Shown: positions 1,491 through 38,082, numbered from the stretch's first letter. The stretch: 64,000 nucleotides of DNA from Anaerolineales bacterium (GCA_050014715.1 JBEKCT010000002.1:1331-65330); one strand, 5' to 3'. Numbers and translations are program-made. Notes: generated by a model not told the origin, from the sequence alone.

Positions 1491-2555
1491 ATGGAGCATT
1501 TTATGAAACAACCCTATTTCATTCGCGTGGCCAACCAGACCCCGACCGAATTCTGGATCAACAACCCCACCTGCGAGCAGGCCGACCTAGCCCTCACCAA
1601 CGGGGCAACCGGCTGCACCAATAATCCCTCCTACTCGCAGAAGATGATCGAGCATCCTAGTGAAGGCCCCTACGCCTCCCGGCTTCTGGATGAGGCTCTC
1701 GGCGAATCCGAAAATGACAATGAGGTCGCAGCGATCTTCCAACGCAAGCTTGTCGCCTCCATCGCAGAGAAATTTATGCCGATTTTTGAGAAAACCAACG
1801 GTAAGCAGGGCTACGTCTCAATCCAGGGTGACCCGATCCTCGAAGACGATCCCCAGGTTATCATCCGCGAAGCCCTCGAAAACCGCAAGGTATCACCTAA
1901 TATCTGCTGTAAAATTCCTACCACTCATGCCGGCTTGATCGCGATGAAATACTTGGTGGAGGAAGGAGTACCGCTGAACGCTACAGAGGTCTTTGGAATC
2001 GCCCAAGGGGTTGCCTTGTGTGAGAGTTACCAGCAGGCAACTGAAAAGACGGGCAAACGTCCAAAGCTTTTCATCTCCCACATCGTCGGAATTTACGACG
2101 ACCACTTACGCAACACGGTCGAGCTTGAGAAGATCGAGATATCCCCGGACGTTTTGTGGCAGGCGGGGCTGGCGGTCTCCCGCAAGCTGTACCTACTCAT
2201 GGAAGAACGGGGCTACCCAGGGACGATGATCGTAGGTGGCGCGCGGGGCTTGCATCATTTCACCGAGGTGGTGGGAGGGAAGATCTGCTGCACGATCAAC
2301 TGGGAGGGGACGGCGGATAAGCTTCTCGAGCAAGACCCGCCGGTGGTGTACCGGCTGTTTAACCCGGTGCCGCAGAAGGTTATTGATGAGCTAATGGAGA
2401 AACTACCCGATTTCAAACGTGGGTATGCAGAAGATGGGCTAAGCATAGAAGAGTTTGAAGGCTTTGGTCCTGTACAATTATTCCGGAGCAGCTTTATCAA
2501 AAGCTGGAAGAGAATTCTCGAGCTTGCGAAAGAGAGACGTAGCATAGTGGCCTAG
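1491..2555 (+). CDS. transaldolase-family protein
   Basis: 354-aa ORF. TEFWINNPT and GATGCTNNPS match the transaldolase/F6P-aldolase signature, and CCKIPTTHAGL fits the Schiff-base lysine strand. GGAG 6 nt upstream of a second in-frame ATG at 1503 may mark the true start. Confidence 0.8.
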   Translation: MEHFMKQPYFIRVANQTPTEFWINNPTCEQADLALTNGATGCTNNPSYSQKMIEHPSEGPYASRLLDEALGESENDNEVAAIFQRKLVASIAEKFMPIFEKTNGKQGYVSIQGDPILEDDPQVIIREALENRKVSPNICCKIPTTHAGLIAMKYLVEEGVPLNATEVFGIAQGVALCESYQQATEKTGKRPKLFISHIVGIYDDHLRNTVELEKIEISPDVLWQAGLAVSRKLYLLMEERGYPGTMIVGGARGLHHFTEVVGGKICCTINWEGTADKLLEQDPPVVYRLFNPVPQKVIDELMEKLPDFKRGYAEDGLSIEEFEGFGPVQLFRSSFIKSWKRILELAKERRSIVA

Positions 2556-17000: not shown

Positions 17001-18047
17001 ATGAAAACACTTGTCTGGTATGGAGCATTGGATGTGCGGTTGGAAGAGCGCCCGCTTCCCCGGCCTGGCTTGGGTGAATTATTGGTCCGTATCAAAGCTC
17101 TCGGGATATGCGGATCCGATTTGAAGCTTTACAAGTACGGGATCTTGGGTACTTTACAGCCAACCCATCCGTTCATTATGGGTCATGAAGGTGCTGGGCA
17201 GGTGGCACAGGTTGGTGACAGCGTAGAAGGATTTGAGGTGGGTGATCCGGTGATCATCAATCCACAGAGTGTCTGTGAGGATTGCTTTTACTGCCGGAAG
17301 GGCGAGCAAAATCTATGCGAGCGATTGAATTTCAAGAGTGTGACGACAGATGGGGTCTATTCAGAATTCGTCCTGGTTCGGGCAATCCAAGCCATCCACC
17401 TTCCACCCGGTTTTGATTTTGGGCTGGCTACGACAATCGAGCCAGTATCGGTGGCCGTCCAGGCACTGCGTTCCACCAAAATCTCTCCCTCTGATTCGGT
17501 CCTGATATTGGGTGCCGGGTCGATTGGTCTGGCGATTCTGGGCATCCTAGGCTCTATGGGTATCAGCCGGGTAGCGACGGTCGATCCACAGGAATTTGCT
17601 CTTGAGCGTGCCCGACAGGCAGGAGCTGCCTTGACCATCAATACCCAAAAAGCGGATTTAACCGGGGAAATAAGCAAGTTCTTCGGGTCGCGGGGGCCGG
17701 ATGTGGTGGTCGAGGCATCTGGATCCAGTGCAGCCCAGTCATTGGCCTTTGAGTACGCCCGGCCAGGCGGCGCGATCATCCTGGTCGGGATCTCAGCAGA
17801 GGCAAGCACAAATGTGAATATAAACCGCCTAGTACGTTCCAACCTTCGTGTTTTTGGATCGGTGCGCACGAGCGGCGATGCTTTTCCGGCCGCTGCCCGG
17901 CTGGTGACCTCGGGGCAGGTTGACACGCGAGGGTGGATCAGTCAGGTCTTTCCCTTTGAGAAAGCTCCGCAAGCGTTTGCATACACGATTGACCCAAATC
18001 ATCGGGTGACGAAGTGCTTGCTGGAATTCCAAGATCCGGGCAATTAA
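17001..18047 (+). CDS. Zn-dependent alcohol/polyol dehydrogenase (MDR family)
   Basis: 348 aa. It has GICGSDL, GHEGAGQV, the structural-Zn motif CEDCFYCRKG, and GAGSIGLA. Confidence 0.85.
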   Translation: MKTLVWYGALDVRLEERPLPRPGLGELLVRIKALGICGSDLKLYKYGILGTLQPTHPFIMGHEGAGQVAQVGDSVEGFEVGDPVIINPQSVCEDCFYCRKGEQNLCERLNFKSVTTDGVYSEFVLVRAIQAIHLPPGFDFGLATTIEPVSVAVQALRSTKISPSDSVLILGAGSIGLAILGILGSMGISRVATVDPQEFALERARQAGAALTINTQKADLTGEISKFFGSRGPDVVVEASGSSAAQSLAFEYARPGGAIILVGISAEASTNVNINRLVRSNLRVFGSVRTSGDAFPAAARLVTSGQVDTRGWISQVFPFEKAPQAFAYTIDPNHRVTKCLLEFQDPGN

Positions 18048-18174
18048 TGGCCGACCAGATCGATAGCCAAACACCCTATATACTGAAAGCGGCCTGGCCG
18101 AATGCGCCTTTTACCAAAACCGCCATCCCCCCGCTGTTAGCGGTGGAGAATTTCAGAAGAGGAGATAAATTATT

Positions 18175-19251
18175 ATGAAAGCTATCGTTTTCTATAATGT
18201 GGGTGATATCCGCTTCGAATCCAAATGGCCAGAACCGCGTACCTTAAAACCGGACGAGGTGCGTATCTCGACCTCCTGGTGTGGGATTTGCGGTACGGAC
18301 ATGGAGGATTACAAAAAGGGTGCCATTATCCCGATTGGGAAGCCTCACCCTGAGTCGGGACGGATGGCGCCGCTGGTTATCGGCCATGAATACTCGGGGC
18401 GTGTGCTGGAACGGGGTTCTCGAGTGGAGGGTCTGGAGATCGGTCAGAGGGTGGCAATCGAGTGCGTGCGTCACTGCGGCCACTGCTATTGGTGCAAGCG
18501 GGGCGAGTTTGCCTCTTGCCTCAACCAGGTCTCGGTTGGCCAGGTCGATGACGGAGGTATGGCGGATTGCTTCAACATACCGGCCACGAATTGTATCCCT
18601 CTCCCGGATTCTCTCTCGGAAGATGAAGCAGCTTTGACAGAGCCGCTGGCTGTAATGATCCGCGCCGTCCACAAGGGCAGGGTTCAGGTCGGTGATATCG
18701 TCACTGTCATCGGGGCAGGCGCGATCGGCCTGTGCGGAATAGCCGCGGCCAGGGTGGCAGGAGCCAGCCACGTGATCTCTCTGACCCATGGTGGCAGCCG
18801 AGCAGAAGCGGCTCGCCAAATGGGCGCTACGACCGTGCTGAACACCCGTGAAGAGAACTGGAAGGAAACCTTCTACGAACTGACACATGGCTTGGGCTCA
18901 GATGTGGTGATAGACGCCGGTGCAAACTTGGATGGCATGCGCCAGGCCGTGGAACTGACCCGCCGCCAGGGACGTTGCGTCATCAACAGTGTTATCGATG
19001 GCGACGTGCCTCTTAACGCACTGGATATCATGTTGAACGAGAAAGAAATTATCGGTACTTGCGCTCATCAGGAAGACAGGGAATTTCTTTGGGCCGTACA
19101 GTATATGTCGGATGGACGTATTGACGTCAAACCGATTATCACCAGCCGGATTTATATCGCTGACGCGGTGGAAGCAGGTTTCAATCGCCTGCTTACCGAT
19201 CGATCTCAGATTAAAATTCTGGTAACCCCGCATAAAGAATTGATCCATTAA
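18175..19251 (+). CDS. 2,3-butanediol dehydrogenase-like Zn-ADH
   Basis: 358 aa. It has WCGICGTDMEDY, the insertion PIGKPHPESGRMAPLVIGHEYSG, and the C-terminal SQIKILVTP. All resemble (R,R)-butanediol dehydrogenase-type MDRs. Confidence 0.75.
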   Translation: MKAIVFYNVGDIRFESKWPEPRTLKPDEVRISTSWCGICGTDMEDYKKGAIIPIGKPHPESGRMAPLVIGHEYSGRVLERGSRVEGLEIGQRVAIECVRHCGHCYWCKRGEFASCLNQVSVGQVDDGGMADCFNIPATNCIPLPDSLSEDEAALTEPLAVMIRAVHKGRVQVGDIVTVIGAGAIGLCGIAAARVAGASHVISLTHGGSRAEAARQMGATTVLNTREENWKETFYELTHGLGSDVVIDAGANLDGMRQAVELTRRQGRCVINSVIDGDVPLNALDIMLNEKEIIGTCAHQEDREFLWAVQYMSDGRIDVKPIITSRIYIADAVEAGFNRLLTDRSQIKILVTPHKELIH

Positions 19252-19261
19252 GGACACACAA

Positions 19262-20065
19262 ATGCTCACAACTGAAGGAAGATTAAAAGATGTCAGGCCG
19301 GTCTTCAGCCTTTCTGAAAAAGTTGCTCTGGTGACCGGCGCAGGCTCTGGCCTGGGGAGAGGGATCGCGGAAGGGTTTGGCCAGTTTGGAGCCCGTGTCG
19401 CTGTCGTCGATCAAAACCCGGATACCGCAAGAGAAACCATCTCCTTTATTAAGCAGAGTGGGGGCAGGGCGATTGCAATCCAGTGTGATGTAACCAAGGA
19501 GGACCAGGTCAAAGCGGCTGTTGCGAAAACGGTCAAGGAATTTGGAAAGATTGACATCTTGGCTGCCATTGCCGGGATTGGCGATCGGAACCCAGCCGAG
19601 AAAATGACGCTTGAGCAGTGGGACAGGGTCATTGATATTAATTTAAAGGGGGTTTGGTTGTTCGATCAGGAGGTAGGGAAGCATATGATCGAGCGAGGCC
19701 AGGGTGGAAGCATTATCAATATGGCTTCGGTTGCCGGCATCGTTGGCATCACCACCGGCAACGCGAATTATGCTGCCAGCAAAGGCGGCGTCATTGCGCT
19801 TACCCACCTTTTGGCCATCGAATGGGCAAAATTTAACATCCGGGTGAATGCGATTGCCCCAGTCCAGTTTAAGACACCCCTCATTAAAAACCTCTTTCAT
19901 CAGAAACCAGAAACCGAACAATATTTCCTAGCCCATATCCCATTGGGAAGATTGGGCGACGTCGACGAGATCGTTGGACCGGCAGTTTTTCTGGCTTCCA
20001 GCGCGTCATCGATGGTCACCGGTCACGTGCTCGTGGTAGACGGGGGAAGTACCGTAGCTTTCTAG
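19262..20065 (+). CDS. SDR-family oxidoreductase
   Basis: 267 aa. It has TGAGSGLGRGIA, AAIAG, and the catalytic YAASKGG. Confidence 0.9.
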   Translation: MLTTEGRLKDVRPVFSLSEKVALVTGAGSGLGRGIAEGFGQFGARVAVVDQNPDTARETISFIKQSGGRAIAIQCDVTKEDQVKAAVAKTVKEFGKIDILAAIAGIGDRNPAEKMTLEQWDRVIDINLKGVWLFDQEVGKHMIERGQGGSIINMASVAGIVGITTGNANYAASKGGVIALTHLLAIEWAKFNIRVNAIAPVQFKTPLIKNLFHQKPETEQYFLAHIPLGRLGDVDEIVGPAVFLASSASSMVTGHVLVVDGGSTVAF

Positions 20066-20078
20066 AAAGGTCATAAAT

Positions 20079-20987
20079 ATGATCACCGGTCTCTTTCATG
20101 CCAGTTACACCATCTCGGATGTAGAAAAAACCGTTTCCTTCTGCAAAGAGGTGTTAGGGCTGGAACACACGCGATGGCAGATCAGCAATCAACCCTATCT
20201 TGCATCAGTCACAGGTATTCCCGGCTGCAGTTTGCGAATTGGCTTTGCTCGGGCAGAGGGCGACGATACATCGTACGAAATGGTGGAGTATGTACAGCCC
20301 AAAGGCCCGCGCGCCAGAACAGGGTTCGGAATCCCCGGATCCATTTACATGAGTTGGGAAGTGGACAATTTGGAAGCAGCCATTGAAAGGTTAAGGAAGG
20401 CCAATACCTCCATTATCGCCAGTCCAGCTACGATTGAGGATGGTTTATGGAAAGATGCCCGGGGAGTATTTTTCCTGGGTCCAGATGATATTCTCACTGA
20501 ATTGGTGGAGATCAAGCACCAACCCGATGGAAATGGAAGGTTGTTACGTCTTCATCATGTCACCTTCTCAATTACCAGTATTGAAAAAGCGCTTGGGATT
20601 TTTTGTGAAAAGTTAAAATTGACCTTGGATCTCATCGTTAATTCCTCGGGAGATTATGTGTCCAATTTCATTCGACTTCCTGATCCGTCCATGCGTAAAG
20701 CATATTTATCAATACCGAATACAAATTGCAAAATGGAATTGTTGGAGTATCGTACAGCCGCTGGCCCAACTGCGGATATGGCAACAAACAACCTGGCCAG
20801 TGGTCACGCATGTTTTCGGGCAGACGACATGAATTCGACTTATCGTGAATTGAGATCGGTCGGGGTAGAATTTGTTGGCAAACCAACGGAGATTACCGCG
20901 GGAGTAAATAAGGGTGGATACGCAACATATTTTAAAGGCACGGACGGTATCCGTTTTGAGCTCTTTCAAAATCCGCCAGCGGTCTGA
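20079..20987 (+). CDS. two-domain VOC (glyoxalase/dioxygenase) family protein
   Basis: 302 aa. It has two tandem beta-alpha-beta-beta-beta modules. Each starts with an H-containing strand (LFHASYTISD and LHHVTFSITS) and has a conserved E near its end. Confidence 0.8.
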   Translation: MITGLFHASYTISDVEKTVSFCKEVLGLEHTRWQISNQPYLASVTGIPGCSLRIGFARAEGDDTSYEMVEYVQPKGPRARTGFGIPGSIYMSWEVDNLEAAIERLRKANTSIIASPATIEDGLWKDARGVFFLGPDDILTELVEIKHQPDGNGRLLRLHHVTFSITSIEKALGIFCEKLKLTLDLIVNSSGDYVSNFIRLPDPSMRKAYLSIPNTNCKMELLEYRTAAGPTADMATNNLASGHACFRADDMNSTYRELRSVGVEFVGKPTEITAGVNKGGYATYFKGTDGIRFELFQNPPAV

Positions 20988-21052
20988 AGCCGGGTTTAAC
21001 GACCCGGTTTTCAGAATCGCTATTCGGTAAAAATTATCAAAAGGAGAAATAT

Positions 21053-21823
21053 ATGACAACTCGGATCCAATTCTTTGGTGTTGCTGGTTATCAAATCATT
21101 ACCGCGAGCGGCAAACATGTGGTGATTGACCCATTCCTGGATGGGAATGTTCAATCGCCGGTGAAAGTGGCCGATCTGGAACAAGTCGATCTGCTTCTCA
21201 TCACCCATAATGCATCGGATCACATGGGGAATGCCCCCGACATCCTCCGCAAATTCCACTGCCCGGTGATTTGCGCCAAGGATGTGATTCACAACCTGAC
21301 CCGGAATCATGGTATCGATCCGGACCTGTTCCGGGTAACCATATGGGGGATGGTAATCGAGGAGGCTGGTGTACGAGTACGCCCGGTAGAAAGCCATCAC
21401 TGGTCATTTGCTGTCACTCCGAGTGGCGAACTGCTCTCTGGTCCGGCGCTGGGATTTATTGTTGAGGCGGGTCCGGGCGTACGTATTTATCATCCGGGCG
21501 ATACAGCCATGACCTACGACATGCGATTGTGGGGAGAACTCTATAAACCCACAGTGGGGTTGATGCATGTGACCCTACCGGAAGGTCCAAGCGTTTCATT
21601 GCCTCATATGGAATGCTACCAGTGTGGAGAATTAACCCCTTACGAAGCGGCACTGGCCAGCCAGTGGCTGGGCCTTCAGCACGTGGTGGTCAGTCATTAT
21701 ATGGATCCTAACTGTAAAGATGTCCAGGATTTCCTGCAAATTATGAAAGCGTCTGACCGAGGCGATGGCACTGGTCCGAAAGTAAGTGTTATGAATCCCG
21801 GTGAATGGTTGGATTTGGTCTGA
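21053..21823 (+). CDS. MBL-fold metal-dependent hydrolase (UPF0173-like), variant metal motif
   Basis: 256 aa. Motifs seen are IQFFGVAGYQI..HVVIDPFL, LLITHNASDHMGN (HxHxDH reads HNASDH), YHPGDTA and VVSHY. Confidence 0.75.
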   Translation: MTTRIQFFGVAGYQIITASGKHVVIDPFLDGNVQSPVKVADLEQVDLLLITHNASDHMGNAPDILRKFHCPVICAKDVIHNLTRNHGIDPDLFRVTIWGMVIEEAGVRVRPVESHHWSFAVTPSGELLSGPALGFIVEAGPGVRIYHPGDTAMTYDMRLWGELYKPTVGLMHVTLPEGPSVSLPHMECYQCGELTPYEAALASQWLGLQHVVVSHYMDPNCKDVQDFLQIMKASDRGDGTGPKVSVMNPGEWLDLV

Positions 21824-21835
21824 AAAGGCCTCCTC

Positions 21836-22612
21836 ATGGAGTTCGACCAACAGGGTGTTCATATCCGGATGATTTCCGGGCTTTCAAGTAGACATCTTGT
21901 CGGTGCAACAGGCTTGATCAAAAGCCTGAATTTCCACACCGAGATCAAGACAACACGCAAAACGCTTCCCCTTGGTCACCCTACTTCCCCTAGCCTGGGC
22001 GTTGTCCTCAACGGCGAGGGCGCCACATTAGAATGGGCTGGCCGCGCCACCCCACTGCAACGCTGGTCCTGGTTCTACTTACCAGCCGGCTGCCCGGCAA
22101 ACCTGGATTCCAGGGAAGGCTCTCTTTCTCTTTTGCTGACCAAGCCTGTCAGTATCAATCCAGCCATGCTTGAGGCTGCCTTGCAAGGCGAGCCTGTTGT
22201 GGCGTCACTTAACACGCTTCGAGTTATCCGTAAAGAAGGGCGTATCACTTTTAATGCAGCGGGGGATGGCTGCCCAATCAACCGGCCATTCTTCATGGCC
22301 TCCTTTTGTATCTACGACCAAGAATATGGCAGCATGGCTCAGCACGTGCATACCGACCAGGAGGAATGCATGTTTGTTTTGCGCGCAACTGGCAGCCAGC
22401 CCATCTTCCGCTTCTCCAGTCATTCGGTCAATCTCCAAGATGAGACCCTGATCCACGTTTTCCCGGGGGATTACCATGGGTTCATCCCCTCAGCAGACGG
22501 TAAGATCGCGATCGTGGCATTGTACCTTTTCCCTTCCAGTAACGCAGGTGTGAAGTTGGAACCCATGAGCCCAAAAGATATTACCTTGTGGGAAGCGGTC
22601 GCTGGCAGCTAG
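21836..22612 (+). CDS. cupin-like hypothetical protein
   Basis: 258 aa. The C-terminal HVHTDQEECMFVL...HVFPGDYHGF resembles a cupin metal motif. It is co-oriented and close-packed with block B. Confidence 0.45.
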   Translation: MEFDQQGVHIRMISGLSSRHLVGATGLIKSLNFHTEIKTTRKTLPLGHPTSPSLGVVLNGEGATLEWAGRATPLQRWSWFYLPAGCPANLDSREGSLSLLLTKPVSINPAMLEAALQGEPVVASLNTLRVIRKEGRITFNAAGDGCPINRPFFMASFCIYDQEYGSMAQHVHTDQEECMFVLRATGSQPIFRFSSHSVNLQDETLIHVFPGDYHGFIPSADGKIAIVALYLFPSSNAGVKLEPMSPKDITLWEAVAGS

Positions 22613-22626: not shown

Positions 22627-23664
22627 CTATTTGTATAGCTTCGTCGGAAATGGATTTCGCTCAGTAAACTGGCGTTGGTGCCAGTATGGATAAATGGTGT
22701 CCGTTTCGCTGACTGCATCCATCCGCGCTACTTGCTCCGCGCTCAAATTCCATCCAACGGCTCCCAAGTTTTCCCGCAACTGTTCTTCGTCGCGAGCACC
22801 AATAATCACGCTGGCGACTGTTGGTCTTTGCAACAGCCAGTTGAGCGAGACTTGCGCCACCGTTTTGCCCGTTTCTGCACTTATTGCATCCAACACGTCC
22901 ACAATGTTGTAGAACCATTCGTCAGGAATCGCTGGTCCCTCGCCAGCGCCTTGTGCTACGCGACTCCCGGCCGGAATAGGTTGGTTGCGCCGGAATTTTC
23001 CACTCAGGCGTCCTTGTGATAGTGACCCCCAGACGATAGTACCAACCTTTTGATCAATCGCCAGCGGCATCAGATCCCATTCGTATTCCCGCCTGAGCAA
23101 TGAATAATGGGCTTGATGAGCTATATAGCGTGCCCAGCCGTACTTTTCGGAAATAGCCAGTGATTTCATCAATTGCCAGCCAGAGAAATTGGAACAGGCG
23201 ATATAACGCACCTTACCACTTTGCACCAGCGTCTCCAGTGTTCGCAGCGTTTCCTCAACCGAAGTTTGTGCATCGAACCCATGTATGATATAAATATCGA
23301 GGTAATCCGTATTGAGGCGACGCAGGCTGGCTTCGCATGAGCGAATGAGGTGGTAACGTGAAGTTCCCACCGCGTTCGGCTCATCACTCATGCGGAAGGT
23401 AGCCTTCGTAGAAACCAGCAATTTATCACGCCGTCCGCTGATTGATTTCCCCAGAATTTCTTCCGACTGTCCCGCCGAATAAACATCTGCTGTATCAAAC
23501 AGGTTAACACCTGCTTCGATACAAATATTGACCAGGCGCCTGGCTTGCGCGGCATCGCTGTTCCCCCATTTGGCAAAGAAGGGATCGTCGCCGCCAAACG
23601 TCCCCGTCCCGAAACTGAGGGCTGACACACTTAGACCTGAGTCACCAAGTAATCTATATTCCAC
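22627..23664 (-). CDS. aldo/keto reductase
   Basis: 345 aa, GTG start behind AAGGAG. It has the MEYRLLGDSGLSVSALSFGTGTFGG N-terminus, DTADVY, and an AKR-length TIM barrel. Confidence 0.9.
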   Translation of the reverse strand: MEYRLLGDSGLSVSALSFGTGTFGGDDPFFAKWGNSDAAQARRLVNICIEAGVNLFDTADVYSAGQSEEILGKSISGRRDKLLVSTKATFRMSDEPNAVGTSRYHLIRSCEASLRRLNTDYLDIYIIHGFDAQTSVEETLRTLETLVQSGKVRYIACSNFSGWQLMKSLAISEKYGWARYIAHQAHYSLLRREYEWDLMPLAIDQKVGTIVWGSLSQGRLSGKFRRNQPIPAGSRVAQGAGEGPAIPDEWFYNIVDVLDAISAETGKTVAQVSLNWLLQRPTVASVIIGARDEEQLRENLGAVGWNLSAEQVARMDAVSETDTIYPYWHQRQFTERNPFPTKLYK

Positions 23665-23864: not shown

Positions 23865-24818
23865 TCAAACATGGATCTTCCCATTATGGATCAGCCACTC
23901 CACCGATTCAACTACGCCTTGCAGAGAACTATAACGCGGGTGATAGTCGAGCAGGCGTTGCGCTTTGGCAATGCTGCAGTTGGGGCTATGGGCAATATGA
24001 TCCCACGTTGCAGAAGACTCTTCGGCAGAAACGGTAGTGCGCCATTGTTCCCAGGGCAGGTAACTTAGATTGGCGGGTTGTCCGAACCAGTCAGCCACGG
24101 CTTCAGCGTAGCCGCGCAGGGTCAGCGCTGCAGGGGAAACGACATGGAAACTTTCACCCACTGCCGCGCTCCAGTTTGCCAGGGCTTTCATGAAGCTCTG
24201 GGCTACGTCGCCAGCGTGGACGTGATGCACGGTCTCCATCCCCATGTTGGGTAAAACCAGCTCTTCCCCGTGCGCTATCTTCTCGAAGACTATGGGATTA
24301 AAGTGTCCTGCTGGATTGAGCGGTACCCAACCGGGACCCACAATATGACCTGGGTGCAGGATGGTCGCGGGAAAACTACAGCGATGCGCCTGGTCGAGCA
24401 AGTAGTTTTCAATGGCAGCTTTTTGGATCCCATATTCGCCAAAAGGACGACGTGGCTGCTGCTCGGTGGTCGGCACCACCTTGCTGGGGCCATGTACCCA
24501 AATGGTGCCGCAAAATAGAAAGTGTTGTACTTGCCCATTCAATGCTTCGACCAGTTGACGGGCACTTTCGAGTTTGAAACAGATCAAATCGATCACTACA
24601 TCAGGACGTAGAGCGCTCACCCGCCCGCCGAAGGAACCAGCAGTTTCCTCCAGATCCCGGTCAACATTTACTTGCTGGACTTTCGTCCAGGCTTTGTCCG
24701 ACTGGTAAGGCTCACGTTGCTGCCGACTAAGGTTAAAGACCTCATGACCGGCCTCGACCAAGTAAGGCACCAGGTAAGTACCCACATGCCCAGTTCCGCC
24801 AATGGTTATGACACGCAT
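23865..24818 (-). CDS. NAD-dependent epimerase/dehydratase family protein (extended SDR)
   Basis: It starts MRVITIGGTGHVGTYL (GxxGxxG). The start is set at ATG 24818, which has GGAG 8 nt upstream. The ORF track's 24830 start is a TTG 4 codons further up. Confidence 0.8.
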   Translation of the reverse strand: MRVITIGGTGHVGTYLVPYLVEAGHEVFNLSRQQREPYQSDKAWTKVQQVNVDRDLEETAGSFGGRVSALRPDVVIDLICFKLESARQLVEALNGQVQHFLFCGTIWVHGPSKVVPTTEQQPRRPFGEYGIQKAAIENYLLDQAHRCSFPATILHPGHIVGPGWVPLNPAGHFNPIVFEKIAHGEELVLPNMGMETVHHVHAGDVAQSFMKALANWSAAVGESFHVVSPAALTLRGYAEAVADWFGQPANLSYLPWEQWRTTVSAEESSATWDHIAHSPNCSIAKAQRLLDYHPRYSSLQGVVESVEWLIHNGKIHV

Positions 24819-24835
24819 CGCCAACTCCAACCCCT

Positions 24836-25816
24836 CTAATCCATTACCTTGTGAACGGCTGCAATAATATCCTTCTCGCTTGGGATAACTTCCGCTTCTA
24901 GCGCATGGTTATACGGGATTGGAACGTCCTCCGCCGCGACCCGCTGGACCGGGGCGTCCAGGTCATAAAAGCATTCGTCCATGATCCGCGCGGCTAGTTC
25001 GTTAGTAAACCCGCCGGTGCGATGACTTTCACAGACCACAACTACCTTATGGGTCTTCCTGGCTGACTGCCCGATTGTTTCCATATCCAAGGGTTTAAGC
25101 GTGCGAGGATCAATGAATTCCACGTCGATTTTCTGCTGCTCTAGTTCTCTTATGGCCTTTTCCGCCATCCAACACATCCGGCTGGTTGCAACGAGCGTCA
25201 CATCCTTGCCTGGACGACGCAGCGCTGCTTTTCCAATGGGGACAAAGCAGTCCTCGGCCGGAACGGGACCAGATTCTCCGTACAGGAGCTTGTTTTCGAT
25301 AACCAGGACCGGATTATCATCCTGAATGGCCGCCTTAAGCAGCCCTTTGGCATCATAGGGCGTAGATGGCATCACCACCTTTAGCCCGGGAATCAGAGTG
25401 AACCAAGTCTCCAGCGCCTGGGAATGCTGAGCAGCGTTGCCTCGCCCAGCACCAAAGGCAGTGCGGATGGTCAGTGGGACCACGGCGTGCCCTCCGAACA
25501 TGTACTTCACCTTTGCCGCCTGGTTAACAATCGAATCCATGGCCATACAGATAAAGTCCATGTACATGATCTCAACGATCGGGCGCATCCCCATGAGAGC
25601 GGCGCCTACACCTGCCCCAACGATCACTGACTCGCTGATCGGTGTGTTTCTCACCCGCTGGGCGCCAAACTCATCAAAGAGGCCTTTGCTGGCAGCAAAC
25701 GCACCGCCGTGTTTCCCCACGTCCTCTCCCATCAGGAACACCGCCGGGTCCCGGCGCATCTCCTCCGCCATCGCCTCTGCCACTGCCTGTCGATAAGTCA
25801 GTATCCGTTCGCTCAT
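24836..25816 (-). CDS. E1 beta subunit, paralogue 2
   Basis: 326 aa. Motifs seen are RNTPISE, HSQALE and VIENKLLY. Its start abuts the E1alpha stop (25816/25817). Confidence 0.9.
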   Translation of the reverse strand: MSERILTYRQAVAEAMAEEMRRDPAVFLMGEDVGKHGGAFAASKGLFDEFGAQRVRNTPISESVIVGAGVGAALMGMRPIVEIMYMDFICMAMDSIVNQAAKVKYMFGGHAVVPLTIRTAFGAGRGNAAQHSQALETWFTLIPGLKVVMPSTPYDAKGLLKAAIQDDNPVLVIENKLLYGESGPVPAEDCFVPIGKAALRRPGKDVTLVATSRMCWMAEKAIRELEQQKIDVEFIDPRTLKPLDMETIGQSARKTHKVVVVCESHRTGGFTNELAARIMDECFYDLDAPVQRVAAEDVPIPYNHALEAEVIPSEKDIIAAVHKVMD

Positions 25817-26791
25817 CTATGCACCTCCTGTATATATATCTTCAAAGAGGGCCGCGGAATCGGGTTCTGGGGAGGCTTCAGCAAACTGGACCGCTTCATC
25901 TATTTCCTGCTGTACCGAGGCCTGGATTTGGCGGCAATCTGACTCGGTCAGAAGACTGCGCTCGATCAACCGCTGTTCTACCCGCAAGATCGGATCTTTC
26001 TTGCGCCATTCATCGGTCTCTTCTTTACTGCGATAGACCATCGCATCCCCGTAATAATGCCCTTCGATCCGGTAGGTGTTACACTCCAAGACATAGGGTC
26101 CCTTCCCGGAGCGTACATACTGGATCGCTTCGCGGGCGGCAAAATAGACAGCTTCCAGGTCGTTACCGTCCACCGCCTGAGCGGGGAGTCCATACCCGGC
26201 TGCCCGCTTAACCATTGATCCACCTGCCATGGAATAATCTGAGCAAGTAGAGACGGCATAACAATTATTTTCAAATAAGAACAGCACCGGCAATTTCCAG
26301 ATAGCAGCCAGGTTCATTGATTCATGGGTGTTGCCTTCGTTCGAAGCTCCGTCCCCAAACGAGACCACCGTAATCTGATCCGTTCCGCGCATCTGGACAG
26401 CCAAGGCAGCTCCGACCGCAATGGGTAACCCGCCGCTGACAATGCCGTTGGCGCCCAAGTTCCCTAGCTTCAGGCTGGCAATATGCATACTGCCCCCCTT
26501 GCCCTTGCAGTATCCGGTGGATTTGCCCAGGATTTCGGCAAGCATCAGCTTGAGCTCTCCGCCTTTTGCCAGCATATGGCCATGACCGCGGTGAGTGCTG
26601 ACAATGTTGTCGTCTGGCCGAAGCTGGGCGATCACCCCGACGGCAATTGCTTCCTGACCGATGCATAGATGGGTCGTTCCGCCGATTTTTCCTGCCGAGA
26701 AAAGGACTTTGATTGCCTCTTCATGCAGACGAATACGCAACATTAACCGGTAATCTGCTATCAAGGTTTCTCGATCGAGTTGTTGGTTCAT
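25817..26791 (-). CDS. E1 alpha subunit (TPP-dependent), paralogue 2
   Basis: 324 aa. It has STHRGHGH and GDGASNEG...FENN. Its ATG overlaps the stop of the upstream gene as ATGA (26788-26791). Confidence 0.9.
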   Translation of the reverse strand: MNQQLDRETLIADYRLMLRIRLHEEAIKVLFSAGKIGGTTHLCIGQEAIAVGVIAQLRPDDNIVSTHRGHGHMLAKGGELKLMLAEILGKSTGYCKGKGGSMHIASLKLGNLGANGIVSGGLPIAVGAALAVQMRGTDQITVVSFGDGASNEGNTHESMNLAAIWKLPVLFLFENNCYAVSTCSDYSMAGGSMVKRAAGYGLPAQAVDGNDLEAVYFAAREAIQYVRSGKGPYVLECNTYRIEGHYYGDAMVYRSKEETDEWRKKDPILRVEQRLIERSLLTESDCRQIQASVQQEIDEAVQFAEASPEPDSAALFEDIYTGGA

Positions 26792-27699
26792 TTTTGATCT
26801 TCTTCTAATTGGGTTCTGGCCTGCACTCTAGCCAAATCTTCCAAGATTGTGATCACCGCGGAGTGATCCAGATCACCCCGGCCTGCGCATACCAGTGCAT
26901 TAAATAACTGCTGTGTTATGGCCGTACAAGGTAAAGGGACATTGAGGTCTTTAGCGGTCTCGATGATAATATTGAGGTCCTTCAGATGGAACTTGCTTTT
27001 GAATCCGGGTTCGAAGTCACCGTGGATCAATCGCGGCCCACGTACGTCCATCACCCGAGTCTGGGCATATCCGCCGCTCAGCACCTTGAGGATGATCGCT
27101 GGATCCACACCGGCTTTCGCCCCCAGCACGAAGGCTTCTGCCATGCCAACGAAATTTAACGCTACCTGAATCTGGTTGCAAGCTTTGACGATCTGGCCTG
27201 TGCCGTTCGTTCCGCATAAGGTAATGGTCTTCCCCAAGACTTCAAAGATAGGTTTGACCTCCTCAAACAGATCCTCGGGGCCGCCCACCATGATCGAAAG
27301 GGTCGCATTGTAGGCCCCGGTTTCACCCCCGCTTACCGGTGCATCCAGGCAGCGCATCCCCAGCGCCCCCAGCTCTTGAGCTACCCGGACGGCCACCCGC
27401 GGGGAAATGCTGCTCATATCCACATAGATCAACCCCGGCCGGGCGGCATCCCGAATCCCATTCTTCCCCAAGGCAACTTGCTCTACGTCGGGGGAATCGG
27501 GGACCATAGAAATGACAAGGTCACTTTGGGCGGCCACATCTGCGGACGAGAGTCCACGCTTGGCGCCCATAGAAACGAGTGCATCCACCGGTGATGAAAT
27601 GACGTCAAATACGGTCAGGGAATAACCTGCTTGCAACAGGTGGGATGCCATATGCTTCCCCATGATCCCCAACCCAATAAAACCGATTCTTGGCTGCAT
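26788..27699 (-). CDS. beta-hydroxyacid dehydrogenase (3-hydroxyisobutyrate / tartronate-semialdehyde reductase family)
   Basis: 303 aa. It has the IGFIGLGIMGKHMASHL Rossmann N-terminus and DAPVSGG, with the length and helical C-domain of the HIBADH/GarR family. Confidence 0.88.
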   Translation of the reverse strand: MQPRIGFIGLGIMGKHMASHLLQAGYSLTVFDVISSPVDALVSMGAKRGLSSADVAAQSDLVISMVPDSPDVEQVALGKNGIRDAARPGLIYVDMSSISPRVAVRVAQELGALGMRCLDAPVSGGETGAYNATLSIMVGGPEDLFEEVKPIFEVLGKTITLCGTNGTGQIVKACNQIQVALNFVGMAEAFVLGAKAGVDPAIILKVLSGGYAQTRVMDVRGPRLIHGDFEPGFKSKFHLKDLNIIIETAKDLNVPLPCTAITQQLFNALVCAGRGDLDHSAVITILEDLARVQARTQLEEDQK

Positions 27700-27719
27700 A
27701 GTATCCTTTCTTAAATTAT

Positions 27720-28904
27720 TTAGACAGACGGGTTCTCAACCAGCTGTTTTAGACGCTGCAAAAAGCGTCCCGCTGGAGCACCATCCACCAGGCGGTGATC
27801 AAACGCCAGAGTCAAAACCATCCTAGGCCGAATAACGACCTGATCGTCGACAACTACGGGTTTTTTGATGATCGCACCTATTCCAAGGATTGCGCACTCG
27901 GGAACATTTATGATGGGCAGAAAGGTTTCGATCTCCAGACTGCCCAGATTAGTGATGGTAAATGTGCCTCCTTCCAGTTCTTCCAACTTATTTTTCCCTT
28001 TTAAAGCGCGACCGGCAATCTCGTCAAACTCACGTTGCAACGCACCCACGTCTTTCGTGTTAGCCTGATGCAAAACCGGAACCAATAGCCCGCGATCGGA
28101 GTCAACCGCGACCCCAATATTGATCTCTTCCATTAAGCGTATCGAATTGCCTTCCAATTGAGCATTCATATATGGAAATTCCGCCAGCGCCTGAGAGGCA
28201 AGCTTGGCCAGTAGGACATTGTAGCTGCCTTTTATTCCGCTGGCTTGGAGCCGTTCCCGCCATACCAACAGCGCCGTAGCATCTACTTCCAGCGAAAGCC
28301 CAACCCGTGCTACCGTTCGGGCACTTTGGCTCATGTGCTCGGCAATCCTCCGGCGAATGGAAGTCATTTCCTGCTTGGCCGCTCTGGGTTGGGTCGACTG
28401 ACTGGCCTGCATCGCCTGGTATGCTGCCTCGATATCCTCCCGCATGATTTTGTCTTTTCGCGGAACGACTTTGGCGATATCGACCCCCAATTCGCGCGCC
28501 AGAGTCCTGGCAGCCGGTGAGATGGGGATATGAGCCGGGCTGCCCCCCGCCGCGCTTTGGGAGGATGCGGCCGCGCCTGCCCCGGTCAGAACTTTGACCT
28601 CGACCTCCGCCTTGGGTGCGACCCCTTCCGCGATCACATCCGGCACATTAGCAGGCATCGCTTCCCCAGGCTGGAGAATGACTGCTAAAACCACATTACA
28701 GGGGACAATCTCCCCTTCTTGTTTAAGGATGGAGGCGAGGAAGCCACCTGCGGGCGCTTCCACTTCTTGAGTGGCTTTATCGGTCTCAATTTCAAGGATT
28801 GCCTGCCCGGCTTTAACGGCAGTCCCTTCCGGAAACAGCCAGCGGATGATCACCCCCTCGACCATGTTTAGTCCCAGTTTGGGCATTGCGACAAATGTAG
28901 CCAT
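27720..28904 (-). CDS. dihydrolipoamide acyltransferase (E2), paralogue 2
   Basis: 394 aa. It has a lipoyl domain (IETDKAT), a binding domain (ISPAARTLARELGVDI), and the catalytic DHRLVDGA. Confidence 0.9.
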   Translation of the reverse strand: MATFVAMPKLGLNMVEGVIIRWLFPEGTAVKAGQAILEIETDKATQEVEAPAGGFLASILKQEGEIVPCNVVLAVILQPGEAMPANVPDVIAEGVAPKAEVEVKVLTGAGAAASSQSAAGGSPAHIPISPAARTLARELGVDIAKVVPRKDKIMREDIEAAYQAMQASQSTQPRAAKQEMTSIRRRIAEHMSQSARTVARVGLSLEVDATALLVWRERLQASGIKGSYNVLLAKLASQALAEFPYMNAQLEGNSIRLMEEINIGVAVDSDRGLLVPVLHQANTKDVGALQREFDEIAGRALKGKNKLEELEGGTFTITNLGSLEIETFLPIINVPECAILGIGAIIKKPVVVDDQVVIRPRMVLTLAFDHRLVDGAPAGRFLQRLKQLVENPSV

Positions 28905-28935
28905 TGAATAACCTCTCTGCAGTTGCGGTCCGTTG

Positions 28936-29916
28936 CTATTGGTCCATTAAATTCAAGATTGCTTGCTTGACCTTCTCTTCGCTTGGGATGACCATCGCCT
29001 CAAGGTTCTTACTGTACGGCATGGGCACATCCAACCCCGCCACAATGACCGGCTTGACATCGAATAGATCAAATGCTCGTTCCGTGAGCTGGGAGACAAT
29101 TTCACTACCAATTCCACTGCGGCGGTTTGCTTCATGCGTTACAACCAGTCGATGGGTTTTCGATAATGAGCGGATCACGGTTTCGTAATCAAAAGGATAG
29201 ATGGTGCGCGGGTCGATCACCTCACATTCAATACCCATGGCGCTCAGGTCCTTGGCTACTGCTAGGGCTTTGTGGACCATAATCGAAATCGCAACGATGG
29301 TCACATCCCGGCCTTCGCGGCAGACCGCAGCCTTTCCAAAGGGGAGCGTGTACTCTTCTTCCGGCACCTCACCCTGAATCTCATATCCGCGCTTATGTTC
29401 AAAGAAGAGTACTGGATCATTGCCGCGCAGCGAGGTTTTGAGCAGCCCCTTGACATCGTAAGGTGTGATCGGCATCACAACCTGCAACCCCGGGACATGG
29501 CTGAACCATGATTCAAAAGATTGAGAATGCTGAGCTGCCTGGCCGCCCCCCGCACCAACCGGGGCACGAATCACCATCGGGACATTAATCTTTCCGCCAA
29601 ACATATAGCGAATCTTTGCCACCTGGTTGACCAATTGATCCATCCCAATGGTGATCCAATCCGAATAAAGAATTTCGCCGATTGGACGCAGACCGGTCAC
29701 TGCTGCCCCCAGGCATGTACCGACAATCGCTGCCTCGGAGATTGGTGTATCCAGGACCCGCTCGGGGCCGAATTCATCATAGAGGCCTTTGGTTAATCCA
29801 AAAGGATTGCCACGGTGTCCAACATCGCAGCCCATGATAATGATGGTTGGATCGCGGCGAAATTCCTCAAAGAGGGTCTCGTTAATTGCCTGTTTGATGG
29901 TCAGTACTCTGGTCAT
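28936..29916 (-). CDS. E1 beta subunit, paralogue 3
   Basis: 326 aa. Motifs seen are LDTPISE, HSQSFE and FFEHKRGY. It overlaps the E1alpha stop as ATGA (29913-29916). Confidence 0.9.
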   Translation of the reverse strand: MTRVLTIKQAINETLFEEFRRDPTIIIMGCDVGHRGNPFGLTKGLYDEFGPERVLDTPISEAAIVGTCLGAAVTGLRPIGEILYSDWITIGMDQLVNQVAKIRYMFGGKINVPMVIRAPVGAGGGQAAQHSQSFESWFSHVPGLQVVMPITPYDVKGLLKTSLRGNDPVLFFEHKRGYEIQGEVPEEEYTLPFGKAAVCREGRDVTIVAISIMVHKALAVAKDLSAMGIECEVIDPRTIYPFDYETVIRSLSKTHRLVVTHEANRRSGIGSEIVSQLTERAFDLFDVKPVIVAGLDVPMPYSKNLEAMVIPSEEKVKQAILNLMDQ

Positions 29917-31034
29917 GACCCAATTCCTTGTTCTTTCATGAACTCAGGCGAGAAAAGTCCATCGAACAACGTATCCGGGGAAGGTTCAGGGGCAAGCTTG
30001 GCATATTCGATGGCCTCCTCAACTGTTTTGCGTGCGGACGCATAGATGCCATCTACGGTTGCGCGGGTCGAGGTGTGCGAGTCAACCAGGTAGTTGGCCA
30101 TACGATCCAACGGATCAAATTCCTTCCAAGGTTCGTTGGTACGGGTATCCCGGTAGCGTTCGTCATCGGCGACAAAGTGCCCGATAAAACGGTAATACTT
30201 GGCTTCGATCAAGGTTGGCCCGCTGCCATTTCGCGCCAGCTGAGCAGCTTCCTGTACTGCGGAATATACCGCGAAAGGATTGAATCCATCCACGGTCACT
30301 CCAGGTATGCCGTATCCAACTGCCCGGTCAGAAACCTTTGGATTTTTGGCTGCCCGGTAATAGGGTAAGCTGATCGCCCATTGGTTGTTCTCGCACAAGA
30401 AGATGACGGGCAGGTTCCAGATGGCTGCCAGGTTGATCGACTCATGCCAGATACCCTGGTTTGTTCCGCCGTCGCCATGGAAACATACGGTTACATAATC
30501 CTTTTTCAACGTCTTCGCGGTCAAGGCCGCCCCGACGGCGATAGGCATACCGCTGCCAACGATTCCAGTAGCCCCCAGCATCCCTTCATCGACCGCCGCG
30601 ATATGCATCGAACCACCTTTCCCATGACAATAGCCATCAGCCTTGCCCATCAGCTCTGCCATCATCTTCTTGAGGTCCCCCCCTTTGGCGATGGTATGCC
30701 CATGGCCACGGTGGGTGCTGGAAATGAAATCAGATGTGCGCAGGGCCGCGCAGGCTCCCACTGCCACTGCTTCAGCACCGACATAGGAATGGGCTAATCC
30801 GTAGATGAAATTCTGTTTCCAAAGTTCCTTGACGTTAGTATCGAACTCGCGGATGAGGGCCATCTTCCGGTACATTTCGAGCTGCTGGTCGACGGATAGA
30901 TCAGCCGGGGCTTTCAAGGGCGTCAGAATATTCTTTCGAAATACTTTTATCGCTTGAGCGGTCTCTTCAAGTGTTACTGCTGTCGACATAATTATTTTCC
31001 TTTCTTGTTTGATTTGCCAAAACAATTGGAGCAT
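29913..31034 (-). CDS. E1 alpha subunit (TPP-dependent), paralogue 3
   Basis: 373 aa from ATG 31034; an alternative ATG at 30989 gives MSTAVTLEE. It has STHRGHGH and GDGGTNQG...CENN. Even from the alternative ATG at 30989 it keeps a longer N-terminal extension than the other three alphas. Confidence 0.88.
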   Translation of the reverse strand: MLQLFWQIKQERKIIMSTAVTLEETAQAIKVFRKNILTPLKAPADLSVDQQLEMYRKMALIREFDTNVKELWKQNFIYGLAHSYVGAEAVAVGACAALRTSDFISSTHRGHGHTIAKGGDLKKMMAELMGKADGYCHGKGGSMHIAAVDEGMLGATGIVGSGMPIAVGAALTAKTLKKDYVTVCFHGDGGTNQGIWHESINLAAIWNLPVIFLCENNQWAISLPYYRAAKNPKVSDRAVGYGIPGVTVDGFNPFAVYSAVQEAAQLARNGSGPTLIEAKYYRFIGHFVADDERYRDTRTNEPWKEFDPLDRMANYLVDSHTSTRATVDGIYASARKTVEEAIEYAKLAPEPSPDTLFDGLFSPEFMKEQGIGS

Positions 31035-31052
31035 TGCTAAGTGCTTATTTCC

Positions 31053-31805
31053 CTACAGCTGCTGGTGATCAGCCGGGTTGCTGCTCTTCTTCTCCAATTT
31101 CTCCTTTAAAGCTTGAGCTGTTACGCGTTGGGACTGACAGAGATGAGCATACATCTCTTTACTCGCACCCTCGCCGTCATGGGCAATTACATTCTCGAAT
31201 ATTCGGAGGTGAAATTGGTAACCTTCTTCCTTTACACCGGGAAGTTGGCTCGATTGTTTAATCCCTTCCAATAGGGCATCCGTCAGAGGATCTAGCAATA
31301 ATTCAAAAAAGACATTATGGGTAGCACGGGCAAGAGCAAAATGAAATTCGAGATCGACTTCCGGGTAATTCACAGGATCATCAAGATCCTCAGCCATGCA
31401 CTGGAGAATCTGCCGCATCTCAGCCAGATCTTGTTCATTTGCTCTTTCGGCTGCCAATTTAGCAGTTTGAACCTCCAGCGCCCACCGCACCTCTATCAGA
31501 TCGTCTACGGTCGCAGGGTGACCTTTAAGGTTGATCAGCATCCCGATGGAGTTGGCAACCTCCTTTCCTTGCAATATGCGCACGTAAGTACCATTACGCC
31601 CCTTCGACTCAATTAATCCTTTAGCTCTTAAAATACTGATTGCTTCCCGAACAACTGTTCGGCTTACATCAAAGGTTTGACATAACTCGCGCTCCGTTGA
31701 CAGGCGATGCCCGGCCTGAAGAGTGCCCGAGAGGATCATCTGAGTAATTTGTTCGGCCACTTGTTGAGTAAGCCTGTCGGTGCGTTTAACCGGGACGTAG
31801 TCCAT
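31053..31805 (-). CDS. GntR-family (FadR/FCD subfamily) transcriptional regulator
   Basis: 250 aa. It has the winged-HTH LSTERELCQTFDVSRTVVREAISILRAKGLI plus an all-helical FCD-type C-domain. Confidence 0.9.
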   Translation of the reverse strand: MDYVPVKRTDRLTQQVAEQITQMILSGTLQAGHRLSTERELCQTFDVSRTVVREAISILRAKGLIESKGRNGTYVRILQGKEVANSIGMLINLKGHPATVDDLIEVRWALEVQTAKLAAERANEQDLAEMRQILQCMAEDLDDPVNYPEVDLEFHFALARATHNVFFELLLDPLTDALLEGIKQSSQLPGVKEEGYQFHLRIFENVIAHDGEGASKEMYAHLCQSQRVTAQALKEKLEKKSSNPADHQQL

Positions 31806-31825: not shown

Positions 31826-31871
31826 GAATTTGGTATGACCATATTATATAATATGGTCATACCAAATTCAA
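31826..31871. promoter_or_regulatory. perfect 44-bp palindrome with two GntR/FadR-type boxes and back-to-back -10 hexamers; minus-strand promoter TTGAAT-17-TATAAT
   Basis: GAATTTGGTATGACCATATTAT|ATAATATGGTCATACCAAATTC (31826-31869) is its own reverse complement. It contains the boxes TGGTATGACCA and TGGTCATACCA. On the minus strand, -35 is at 31871-31866 and -10 at 31848-31843. On the plus strand, TATAAT is at 31847-31852. Confidence 0.7.
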
Positions 31872-33565: not shown

Positions 33566-33595
33566 GGTACACCCATAACAATCAGGAGCCTTTCA

Positions 33596-34204
33596 TTGGT
33601 ACCGGATGAAATTTTGCAGCTCGCTTCGACAGTGATCAGGCAGGAAAGCGCTGGGATTGCAACACTCTGCGACCAGCTGGACCAGTCTTTCGTTGAGGCT
33701 GCCTACAAACTGTTCAATTGTAAAGGGCATGTGTTGGTGACCGGCTCAGGTACATCGCATGCGGTCGGTGCTCGCTTGGCCCATCTGTTGTCGTGCTGCG
33801 GCACCCCGGCACTGTTTATCCACCCAGGAGACAGTCAGCACGGCTTGGCCGGAGCGGTGCTGGGAGATGACGTGCTGATTGCGCTCTCCAAGGGCGGTGA
33901 GACGGTTGAGGTCAACTACCTGGCCAGCTACGCCAAAAAAATTGGCGCATCCCTGATCGGCCTGACCGAAAAACCCGCCTCAACTTTGGGCAAGATGTGT
34001 GACGTGGTGTTAAAGGTCCAGGCTCCGGCTGACATTGACCCTTATGGCATGATTGCCACCGGTAGTTCCCTGGTAAATGCAGCTCTCGGCGACGCTCTAT
34101 GTGTGGTATTGCTTAAATTGCGCGGTTATACCCGCGAAGACTTTGGCAGGACCCATCCAGGTGGGGCGGTAGGCATCAAACTGTCCCAAGAGCCGGGCAA
34201 GTAA
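33596..34204 (+). CDS. SIS-domain sugar-phosphate isomerase (KpsF/GutQ-like, no CBS pair)
   Basis: 202 aa, TTG start behind AGGAG. The segment VLVTGSGTSHAVGARLAHLLSCCGTPALFIHPGD..HG and ALSKGGET match the SIS fold of arabinose-5-P isomerase-type proteins. Confidence 0.8.
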   Translation: MVPDEILQLASTVIRQESAGIATLCDQLDQSFVEAAYKLFNCKGHVLVTGSGTSHAVGARLAHLLSCCGTPALFIHPGDSQHGLAGAVLGDDVLIALSKGGETVEVNYLASYAKKIGASLIGLTEKPASTLGKMCDVVLKVQAPADIDPYGMIATGSSLVNAALGDALCVVLLKLRGYTREDFGRTHPGGAVGIKLSQEPGK

Positions 34205-34213
34205 GGGAGCGGC

Positions 34214-35272: not shown

Positions 35273-35278
35273 GAACCG

Positions 35279-36625: not shown

Positions 36626-36669
36626 GAAGTCTGATCGATTCTGTTAACCTAATGAGAGGAGCGCAAACC

Positions 36670-38079: not shown

Positions 38080-38082
38080 TTC

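Follow-up and report, generated by a model that had tools for sequence, protein, structure and literature searches.

Complexes of the 2-oxoacid dehydrogenase and acetoin dehydrogenase families are one-E1/one-E2/one-E3 machines, built from a thiamine diphosphate (ThDP)-dependent E1, a dihydrolipoyl acyltransferase (E2), and a dihydrolipoyl dehydrogenase (E3). To our knowledge, the few cases in which two E1s share one E2 belong to central metabolism and are encoded by unlinked genes. Here, we describe an array of eight minus-strand genes in a stretch of 64,000 nucleotides (the window) from an Anaerolineales bacterium (GCA_050014715.1 JBEKCT010000002.1:1331-65330). Uncultured Anaerolineae are abundant fermenters in sediments and digesters. 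The array carries two different E1 pairs, E1α3/E1β3 (E1-3) and E1α2/E1β2 (E1-2), together with a single E2 and an interposed reductase. On balance, the evidence leans towards a catabolic operon that is conserved in Anaerolineae and controlled by GntR. It would encode a branched, lipoate-dependent multienzyme system of pyruvate/acetoin-dehydrogenase type, with two E1s on one E2.

A first, sequence-only reading of this DNA had taken one E1 per E2 as the canonical rule, which is not universal. Two E1 species are carried on one E2 core in the pyruvate dehydrogenase/2-oxoglutarate dehydrogenase (PDH/ODH) complex of Corynebacterium glutamicum (PMC7568260), and the human 2-oxoglutarate and 2-oxoadipate dehydrogenases (OGDH and OADH) share E2o (PMC10003691). 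The likeness lies in two substrate-specific E1s feeding one lipoyl-E2, which for the window is a prediction. However, the E1s of these hybrid complexes are homodimeric, encoded at separate loci, and part of central metabolism, while those of the window are of the α2β2 type and lie with their E2 in one catabolic operon. E1 paralogs likewise outnumber E2s in Haloferax volcanii (oadhAB3 and other orphan E1 operons; PMC8305020), but the haloarchaeal orphans are not encoded beside an E2. Literature searches returned no description of an operon-encoded, α2β2-type, catabolic two-E1/one-E2 system with an interposed reductase. The two-E1/one-E2 principle is already known; its operon-encoded catabolic version is new as far as the literature was searched.

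Two well-studied systems resemble the array in other respects. With the PDH of Geobacillus stearothermophilus (PDB 1W85/3DUF), it shares the E1α/E1β architecture, an E2 with lipoyl, peripheral subunit-binding (PSBD), and catalytic domains, the ThDP motifs, and the residue His128β. It differs in having two E1 pairs per E2, an interposed reductase, no E3 gene, and a GntR/FCD regulator. Because the gene neighbourhood is sugar-catabolic, its substrate is probably not pyruvate. The acetoin dehydrogenase systems of Pelobacter carbinolicus and Bacillus subtilis (acoABCL/acoX) have E1s of a comparable subfamily, with homologs named acetoin:DCPIP (dichlorophenolindophenol) oxidoreductase in databases. 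Further likenesses are the anaerobic fermenter host and, as proposed for the array, the conversion of a hydroxyketone into acyl-CoA and an aldehyde, which is then reduced (PMC3543383). In contrast to the acetoin systems, the array has two E1s and lacks acoL, acoX, and the sigma-54 activator AcoR, an AcoX-like gene (11071-12084) being found only in a separate cluster. Moreover, its reductase is of the tartronate-semialdehyde-reductase type rather than an alcohol dehydrogenase.

All eight minus-strand open reading frames (ORFs) and their domains, as given in the sequence-only reading, were reproduced at the same positions by ORF listing, Pfam, and NCBIfam (Table 1). The junctions are tight. Stop and start codons overlap as ATGA between E1α3 and E1β3 (29913-29916) and between the reductase and E1α2 (26788-26791), and the two genes of the E1-2 pair abut directly (25816/25817, reading TAG followed by ATG), all of which had been noticed before and are real. 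The next gene, encoding an extended short-chain dehydrogenase/reductase (SDR), is co-directional with E1β2 after a gap of 17 nt. The true start of E1α3 is most likely the second Met, at 30989, because a good ribosome-binding site (GAAAGGAAAATAATT-ATG) precedes it and 120 homologs are 356-360 aa long. Consequently, the gap between gntR and E1α3 becomes about 63 nt instead of 18 nt. With this start, the supposedly long N-terminal extension of E1α3 shrinks to about 34 aa, which, by alignment with human PDHA1, is the usual arm length of a PDH-type E1α; E1α2 aligns without such an arm. The co-directional, densely packed layout supports the idea of one transcript, and the gaps from E1α3 to E1β2 are too small for internal signals. 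The arrangement is far beyond chance. No fewer than 14 related loci keep it, and their junctions are just as tight.

Table 1. Features of the array, its control region, and other clusters of the window
Feature	Position	Strand	Basis
gntR: GntR with FCD ligand domain, FadR/PdhR-like subfamily	31053..31805	-	Pfam
E1α3: ThDP-binding alpha subunit, 358 aa	29913..30989 (ORF to 31034)	-	PF00676 2e-88
E1β3: Transket_pyr and Transketolase_C	28936..29916	-	Pfam
E2: dihydrolipoyl acyltransferase with one lipoyl domain, PSBD (E3_binding), and 2-oxoacid_dh catalytic domain	27720..28904	-	Pfam
HIBADH-family NAD(P)H reductase, tartronate-semialdehyde-reductase-like	26788..27699	-	TIGR01505
E1α2: E1_dh, 324 aa	25817..26791	-	PF00676 3e-86
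E1β2: E1 beta subunit, abuts E1α2 stop	24836..25816	-	Pfam
Extended SDR, NAD-dependent epimerase/dehydratase family	23865..24818 (or 24830)	-	Pfam
Aldo/keto reductase, 200 nt 3' of extended SDR	22627..23664	-	Pfam
44-bp perfect palindrome, two TGGT-N3-ACCA (FadR/PdhR-type) boxes, candidate GntR operator	31826..31869	.	repeat finder
Promoter-like TTGAAT-17-TATAAT, overlaps palindrome, upstream of gntR	31843..31871	-	consensus match only
Convergent operon, cassette-partner genes	17001..22612	+
Zinc-dependent alcohol dehydrogenase (Zn-ADH)	17001-18047	+
Zn-ADH	18175-19251	+
SDR	19262-20065	+
Two-domain VOC (vicinal oxygen chelate) protein	20079-20987	+
Metallo-β-lactamase (MBL)/UPF0173 hydrolase	21053-21823	+
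258-aa ORF	21836-22612	+
Divergent transaldolase/FSA-family protein (TAL)	1491..2555	+
Cluster 1: E1 pair, E2, and AcoX-like gene	7996-16110	-
Fourth E1αβ set with E2	51121-54415	+

Both E1 pairs are intact. E1α2 and E1α3 retain the GDG-X(~26)-NN motif for ThDP, the STHRGHGH and GKGGSMH loops, and the loop His, and the GDG..NN motif and His loops are intact in all members of both clades. E1β2 and E1β3 keep the cofactor-activating Glu (TPISE) and the equivalent of Geobacillus His128β, a residue with a catalytic role (PMC2663715). The ThDP, Glu, and His motifs are kept across 12-36 orthologs per clade, with full-length ORFs. A check for inactivating substitutions in cofactor-binding or active-site residues, which the sequence-only reading had proposed, therefore came back clean. 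It had also described the two pairs as substantially different, and their identity is indeed 45% (α) and 50% (β), a divergence as large as that of either pair from the other two E1 pairs of the window. The active-site loop signatures differ as well. With this degree of identity and their separate clades, the pairs are judged to be old paralogs; the same two observations rule out a recent tandem duplication. Neither E1 reaches the cut-off of a PDH equivalog model (NCBIfam). E1α2 is short at 324 aa, an AcoA-like length.

The E2 between them is complete, with a lipoyl-lysine motif (ETDKAT, K43), a PSBD (PF02817), and a catalytic DHRLVDG motif, and its best solved full-length relative is the G. 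stearothermophilus PDH E2 (PDB match). The interposed reductase scores 355 bits on TIGR01505 (tartronate semialdehyde reductase; cut-off 340.75), and its closest PDB entries are the tartronate semialdehyde reductases 1yb4/1vpd.

E1α2 is 100% identical to a protein on a JGI metagenome contig (3300037993, 147.6 kb), which NCBI assigns to Anaerolineales; an exact look-up of the E2 protein gave no match. Conservation was assessed with an E1α3 scan of 185,579 species-representative genomes, which gave 189 relatives, and loci were mapped by comparing the ORFs of all loci with the window proteins, supplemented by gene calls from look-ups. Relatives with at least 67% identity are all Chloroflexota metagenome-assembled genomes (MAGs; Anaerolineaceae, Pelolinea, ‘Chloroflexia’, and Limnocylindrales). 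The next relatives, at 51% or less, belong to ordinary aco-type clusters of Synergistaceae and others. A survey for the order alpha-beta-E2-reductase-alpha-beta, suggested in the sequence-only reading, found it in at least 14 metagenome loci of Anaerolineae. These complete loci, here called type A, come from Pelolinea and Anaerolineaceae and have the order GntR, (SDR), MBL, E1α3, E1β3, E2, HIBADH, E1α2, E1β2, ZnADH, (SGL), SDR, VOC. Amino-acid identity is about 70–90%, and refined junctions range from -11 to +37 nt, with outliers coinciding with frameshifted MAG assemblies. Thus, two E1 pairs flanking a single E2 are a conserved property of this cassette, and the HIBADH reductase between them is kept in most type-A loci.

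Searches seeded with E1α2 recovered three independent contexts (L089-L091), all of which show the type-A cassette; the E1-2 lineage was therefore never seen in these searches with a dedicated E2 of its own. On related contigs, no other E2 was found within 10 kb of the cassette. Two loci (L021 and L027) have E1-3, E2, and HIBADH and no second E1 pair, so E1-2 fits the description of a putative plug-in module.

The conserved partners of the cassette are the MBL-fold hydrolase, Zn-ADH, SDR, VOC, and a transaldolase-like protein. In the window, as in L006, its closest relative, the first four are not co-linear with the cassette, but their orthologs are co-linear with it in other loci. No other cassette has a counterpart of the extended SDR, the aldo/keto reductase, or the 258-aa ORF in its vicinity. 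The first two are lineage-specific, and the aldo/keto reductase possibly belongs to a separate transcript. Accordingly, of the two enzymes previously proposed as product-handling partners, the reductase is conserved, but the epimerase-like extended SDR is genome-specific and lies outside the conserved cassette. All-versus-all clustering of the neighbouring ORFs, noisy from antisense ORFs and single linkage, added no families.

Other Chloroflexota carry a sister cassette, type B, at about 10000-15800 in each locus (L003, L005, L009, L022, L023, L028-L031, L038, and L072). Its order is MBL, E1α3, E1β3, a 92-aa lipoyl protein, a fused E1αβ (~600-770 aa), and a 79-aa lipoyl protein, and, in only three loci, a stand-alone E2 catalytic domain closes it. 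Alongside lie divergent SDR, ZnADH, TAL, GntR, and FGGY genes. ETDK/ETEK is present in both lipoyl proteins, and no PSBD was found in type-B loci, so that the cassette looks like a naturally ‘disassembled’ complex. Its second E1 is most likely lipoyl-dependent too, since the gene that follows encodes a lipoyl protein of its own, with an ETEK motif. Fused E1α-β proteins of ~670-710 aa also occur in Alphaproteobacteria (L054, L057, L058, L060, L061, L064, L069-L071, L074, and L076); their β half is 50-55% identical to E1β2, and this fusion lineage is separate from Chloroflexota type B.

In neighbour-joining trees of the E1 subunits, E1α3/β3 form a single clade covering types A and B, E1α2/β2 a clade confined to type A, and the type-B fused E1 a separate long-branch clade, which rules out the fused protein as an ortholog of E1-2. 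Since the E1-3 clade spans both types and the second E1s form separate clades, E1-3, MBL, and the lipoyl domain make up the ancestral core, joined twice by non-orthologous second E1s. Such repeated recruitment is an argument that the pathway needs a second E1 to function, and that its presence is no accident.

A possible trace of docking was found in the E1β alignment. The column of Geobacillus Glu285 holds Asp in 18/18 type-A E1β3 and 14/14 E1β2 sequences (counts include the window proteins, where the E1β2 residue is D287 at ~24956-24958), as it does in E1β1 and E1β4 of the window. The same column holds K/Q/R/T/S/A in 11/11 type-B E1β3 sequences and Arg in 12/12 fused E1s. Frank et al. in 2005 reportedly described Glu285 as contacting arginines of the PSBD, which was not confirmed in the open papers searched. 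An acidic residue here may be a docking signature; if the contact is as reported, the residue for docking is retained in both E1s of type A and has disappeared exactly where the PSBD has. In an E1 heterotetramer, a single PSBD is bound at the two-fold axis (PMC2663715).

Regulation of the operon is indicated by several features upstream of gntR. The regulator combines a winged helix-turn-helix GntR domain with an FCD domain, and palindromic operator-like boxes lie at a promoter-like site, as expected of a FadR/PdhR-like protein; its top NCBIfam matches (NanR/LldR/PdhR) are all sub-threshold. Exact TGGT-N3-ACCA boxes occur only twice in the window, both inside the 44-bp palindrome, and six other loci (L001, L006, L016, L032, L089, and L091) carry the same box, TGGTCATACCA, at the 5' start of their arrays. 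The gap between gntR and E1α3 contains a weaker promoter-like match in the consensus scan, so there may be an additional internal transcription start. No terminator-like site was detected in any intergenic gap of the array. Neither terminator nor promoter scans showed enrichment against shuffled sequences, and the tiny internal gaps hold nothing. An Rfam scan of the window gave no riboswitch or other RNA family.

A shared E2 is a plausible and the most parsimonious reading of this organisation. Both E1 heterotetramers would dock via the PSBD and load acyl groups onto the single lipoyl domain of E2, with E1-3, the ancestral core, and E1-2, the add-on, each cleaving a different sugar-derived 2-oxo or α-hydroxy-ketone intermediate. 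E2 would then pass the acyl groups to CoA, giving a fermenter thioesters that can yield ATP. The HIBADH enzyme may reduce the aldehyde fragment released by E1 cleavage, thereby re-oxidising NADH from an E3 encoded elsewhere. The redox logic would be that of Pelobacter, in which acetoin yields acetyl-CoA and acetaldehyde, the latter being reduced to ethanol; aldehyde reduction is described for acetoin fermentation (PMC3543383). SDR/Zn-ADH (sugar or aldonate oxidation), MBL (lactonase-like), VOC, and transaldolase-like genes might supply the upstream steps.

Several points weigh against this reading. The E1 sequences, which stay under the PDH equivalog cut-offs, do not specify a substrate class. 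One type-A locus (L026) lacks the reductase. Two further complete E2s (9832-11043 and 53171-54415) lie in other clusters within 25 kb, and E1-2 could use them in trans. The E3 motif CLNxGCIPxK, which is present in the aco loci of Synergistaceae, was found neither in the window nor in ~45 Chloroflexota cassette loci, leaving the redox cycle incomplete, although the genome may encode E3 at another site. The window ORFs of at least 180 aa that were scanned, a part of all such ORFs, showed no Pyr_redox domain. Lastly, no confirmation of the docking role of Glu285 was found in the open papers searched.

The two additional E2s lend weight to the possibility that the complexes are separate though their genes are co-regulated. 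E1-3 would then work with the operon E2, while E1-2 would use another E2 or none, in the latter case being a ThDP lyase, carboligase, or dye-linked oxidoreductase, and adjacency would reflect only a common pathway. Haloferax, with its orphan E1 operons without E2 (PMC8305020), offers a parallel, as do the type-B E1s, which work without a PSBD-bearing E2. However, the place of E1-2 is always directly 3' of E2-HIBADH, where codons overlap or abut, and no other E2 partner was found for it; related contigs carry the cassette with no other E2 inside 10 kb. E1β2 also retains Asp at the putative PSBD-contact column. We therefore regard separate complexes as unlikely.

Still less probable is that the E1s share the E2 but serve, as isozymes, stereoisomers or close analogues of one substrate (R/S hydroxyketones or epimeric keto-sugars) rather than successive steps, which was the epimeric option of the sequence-only reading. 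Acetoin/butanediol systems do use parallel enzymes for stereoisomers (PMC3543383), and paired Zn-ADHs and SDRs accompany the cassette. Isozymes would hardly be expected to be as distant from each other as from the unrelated pairs of the window, with differing loop signatures, or to be replaced in the sister clade by a non-orthologous fused protein, and a reductase between the pairs suits sequential steps.

The missing E3 would find an explanation in an E3-independent relay, in which one E1 acylates the lipoyl group reductively and the second, running in reverse, ligates the acyl group to an aldehyde and regenerates oxidised lipoate, the two ThDP enzymes together making up a redox-neutral, lipoate-mediated ‘trans-ketolase’. 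It would suit both the lack of E3 from the window and every cassette locus and the lipoyl carriers without an E2 catalytic domain in most type-B loci, as well as the presence of a second, non-orthologous E1 in each clade. Yet such a relay has no known precedent, and it is common for several complexes to share an E3 whose gene lies at another site. Furthermore, the type-A E2 catalytic domain is complete, its intact DHRxxDG motif implying CoA transfer, and type B has two separate lipoyl proteins, not one shared carrier. The relay is thus highly improbable. Nothing was found in favour of a last possibility, that one of the E1 pairs is a duplicate in decay or without function, and it is effectively refuted by the motifs and full-length ORFs of 12-36 orthologs per clade, and by deep divergence together with conserved synteny.

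The wider window bears on the kind of substrate that the proposed two-E1 system might use. Four E1α/β pairs, not three, and three complete E2s lie in the 64 kb. In cluster 1, the AcoX-like gene (NAD-kinase fold, minus strand) sits between E1β1 and E2, and the cluster also has GFO/IDH/MocA and hydroxypyruvate/oxo-tetronate-isomerase-like genes. The surroundings are sugar-catabolic and include a CUT2 ABC transporter, a split transketolase, and PfkB. In the split transketolase locus (45285-48047, plus strand), the pyrimidine/C-terminal half (45285-46256) precedes the N-terminal ThDP half (46257-47096), followed by the PfkB kinase; an RpiB-cyclase fusion lies at 49477-50640. The TAL of the window is 74% identical to the one adjoining the cassette in L001, and TAL recurs beside the cassette in ~20 loci. 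In the window, the gene after it encodes a tartrate dehydrogenase (TIGR02089, 538 bits, above cut-off; both genes 1491-3668, plus strand). An MTTB-family (trimethylamine-methyltransferase-like) gene is found at 3872-5329 on the plus strand, and MtaB, B12-binding protein, and URO-D (uroporphyrinogen decarboxylase) methyltransferase genes occur near the cassette in L003 and L089.

On the other side of the array, a plus-strand operon (32579-39606) encodes SorC, a KpsF-like SIS protein, a Zn-ADH, a DRL/SAF protein, a FucI_C protein (weakly SftI-like), and an XylB-like FGGY kinase. Its adjacency to the cassette in three independent genomes (the window, L006, and L091) suggests a functional link to a sugar. 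Other hints are at the family level only: the SDR resembles glucose-1-dehydrogenase and gluconate-5-dehydrogenase, the Zn-ADHs resemble idonate-5-dehydrogenase and IolM, the UPF0173 MBL protein is a possible lactonase, and there is a cupin (u133). Taken together, the similarities of SDR, Zn-ADH, MBL, HIBADH, cupin, TAL, and tartrate dehydrogenase point, with low confidence, to keto-sugar acids (5-keto-aldonates/hexuluronates and oxo-tetronates) as candidate substrates. A sulfoquinovose (sulfo-TAL/TK, transaldolase/transketolase) pathway had come to mind from the TAL, HIBADH, and nearby SftI-like isomerase; it was not adopted, as these similarities are family-level only and neither a sulfoquinovosidase nor a sulfonate exporter was seen.

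A more specific and rather doubtful proposal is that types A and B both encode an undescribed carbohydrate-fermentation route in which two different ThDP E1s successively cut short acyl units from a sugar-derived keto-acid or hydroxyketone onto lipoate. The substrates may be, for example, a 5-keto-aldonate/hexuluronate and then an oxo-tetronate. Such a route may be an oxidative, lipoate-linked counterpart of transketolase chemistry, supplying acyl-CoA for ATP and a semialdehyde for reduction by HIBADH. Because type B often has no E2 catalytic domain, and E3 is missing everywhere, the proposal leaves room for a non-canonical unloading or re-oxidation of the lipoyl group.

In these loci, a dual-E1/single-E2 design has become fixed in one operon and is kept across many uncultured Anaerolineae, amid sugar-catabolic genes. 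Should both E1s indeed bind the shared E2, this would be a natural, modular expansion of the substrate range of a lipoyl complex, and would probably mark a lipoate-dependent route by which strict anaerobes break C–C bonds in sugars or sugar acids. The type-B cassette, with its free lipoyl proteins, its fused E1αβ, and in most loci no E2 catalytic domain, offers a natural comparison for how such complexes are built and dismantled.

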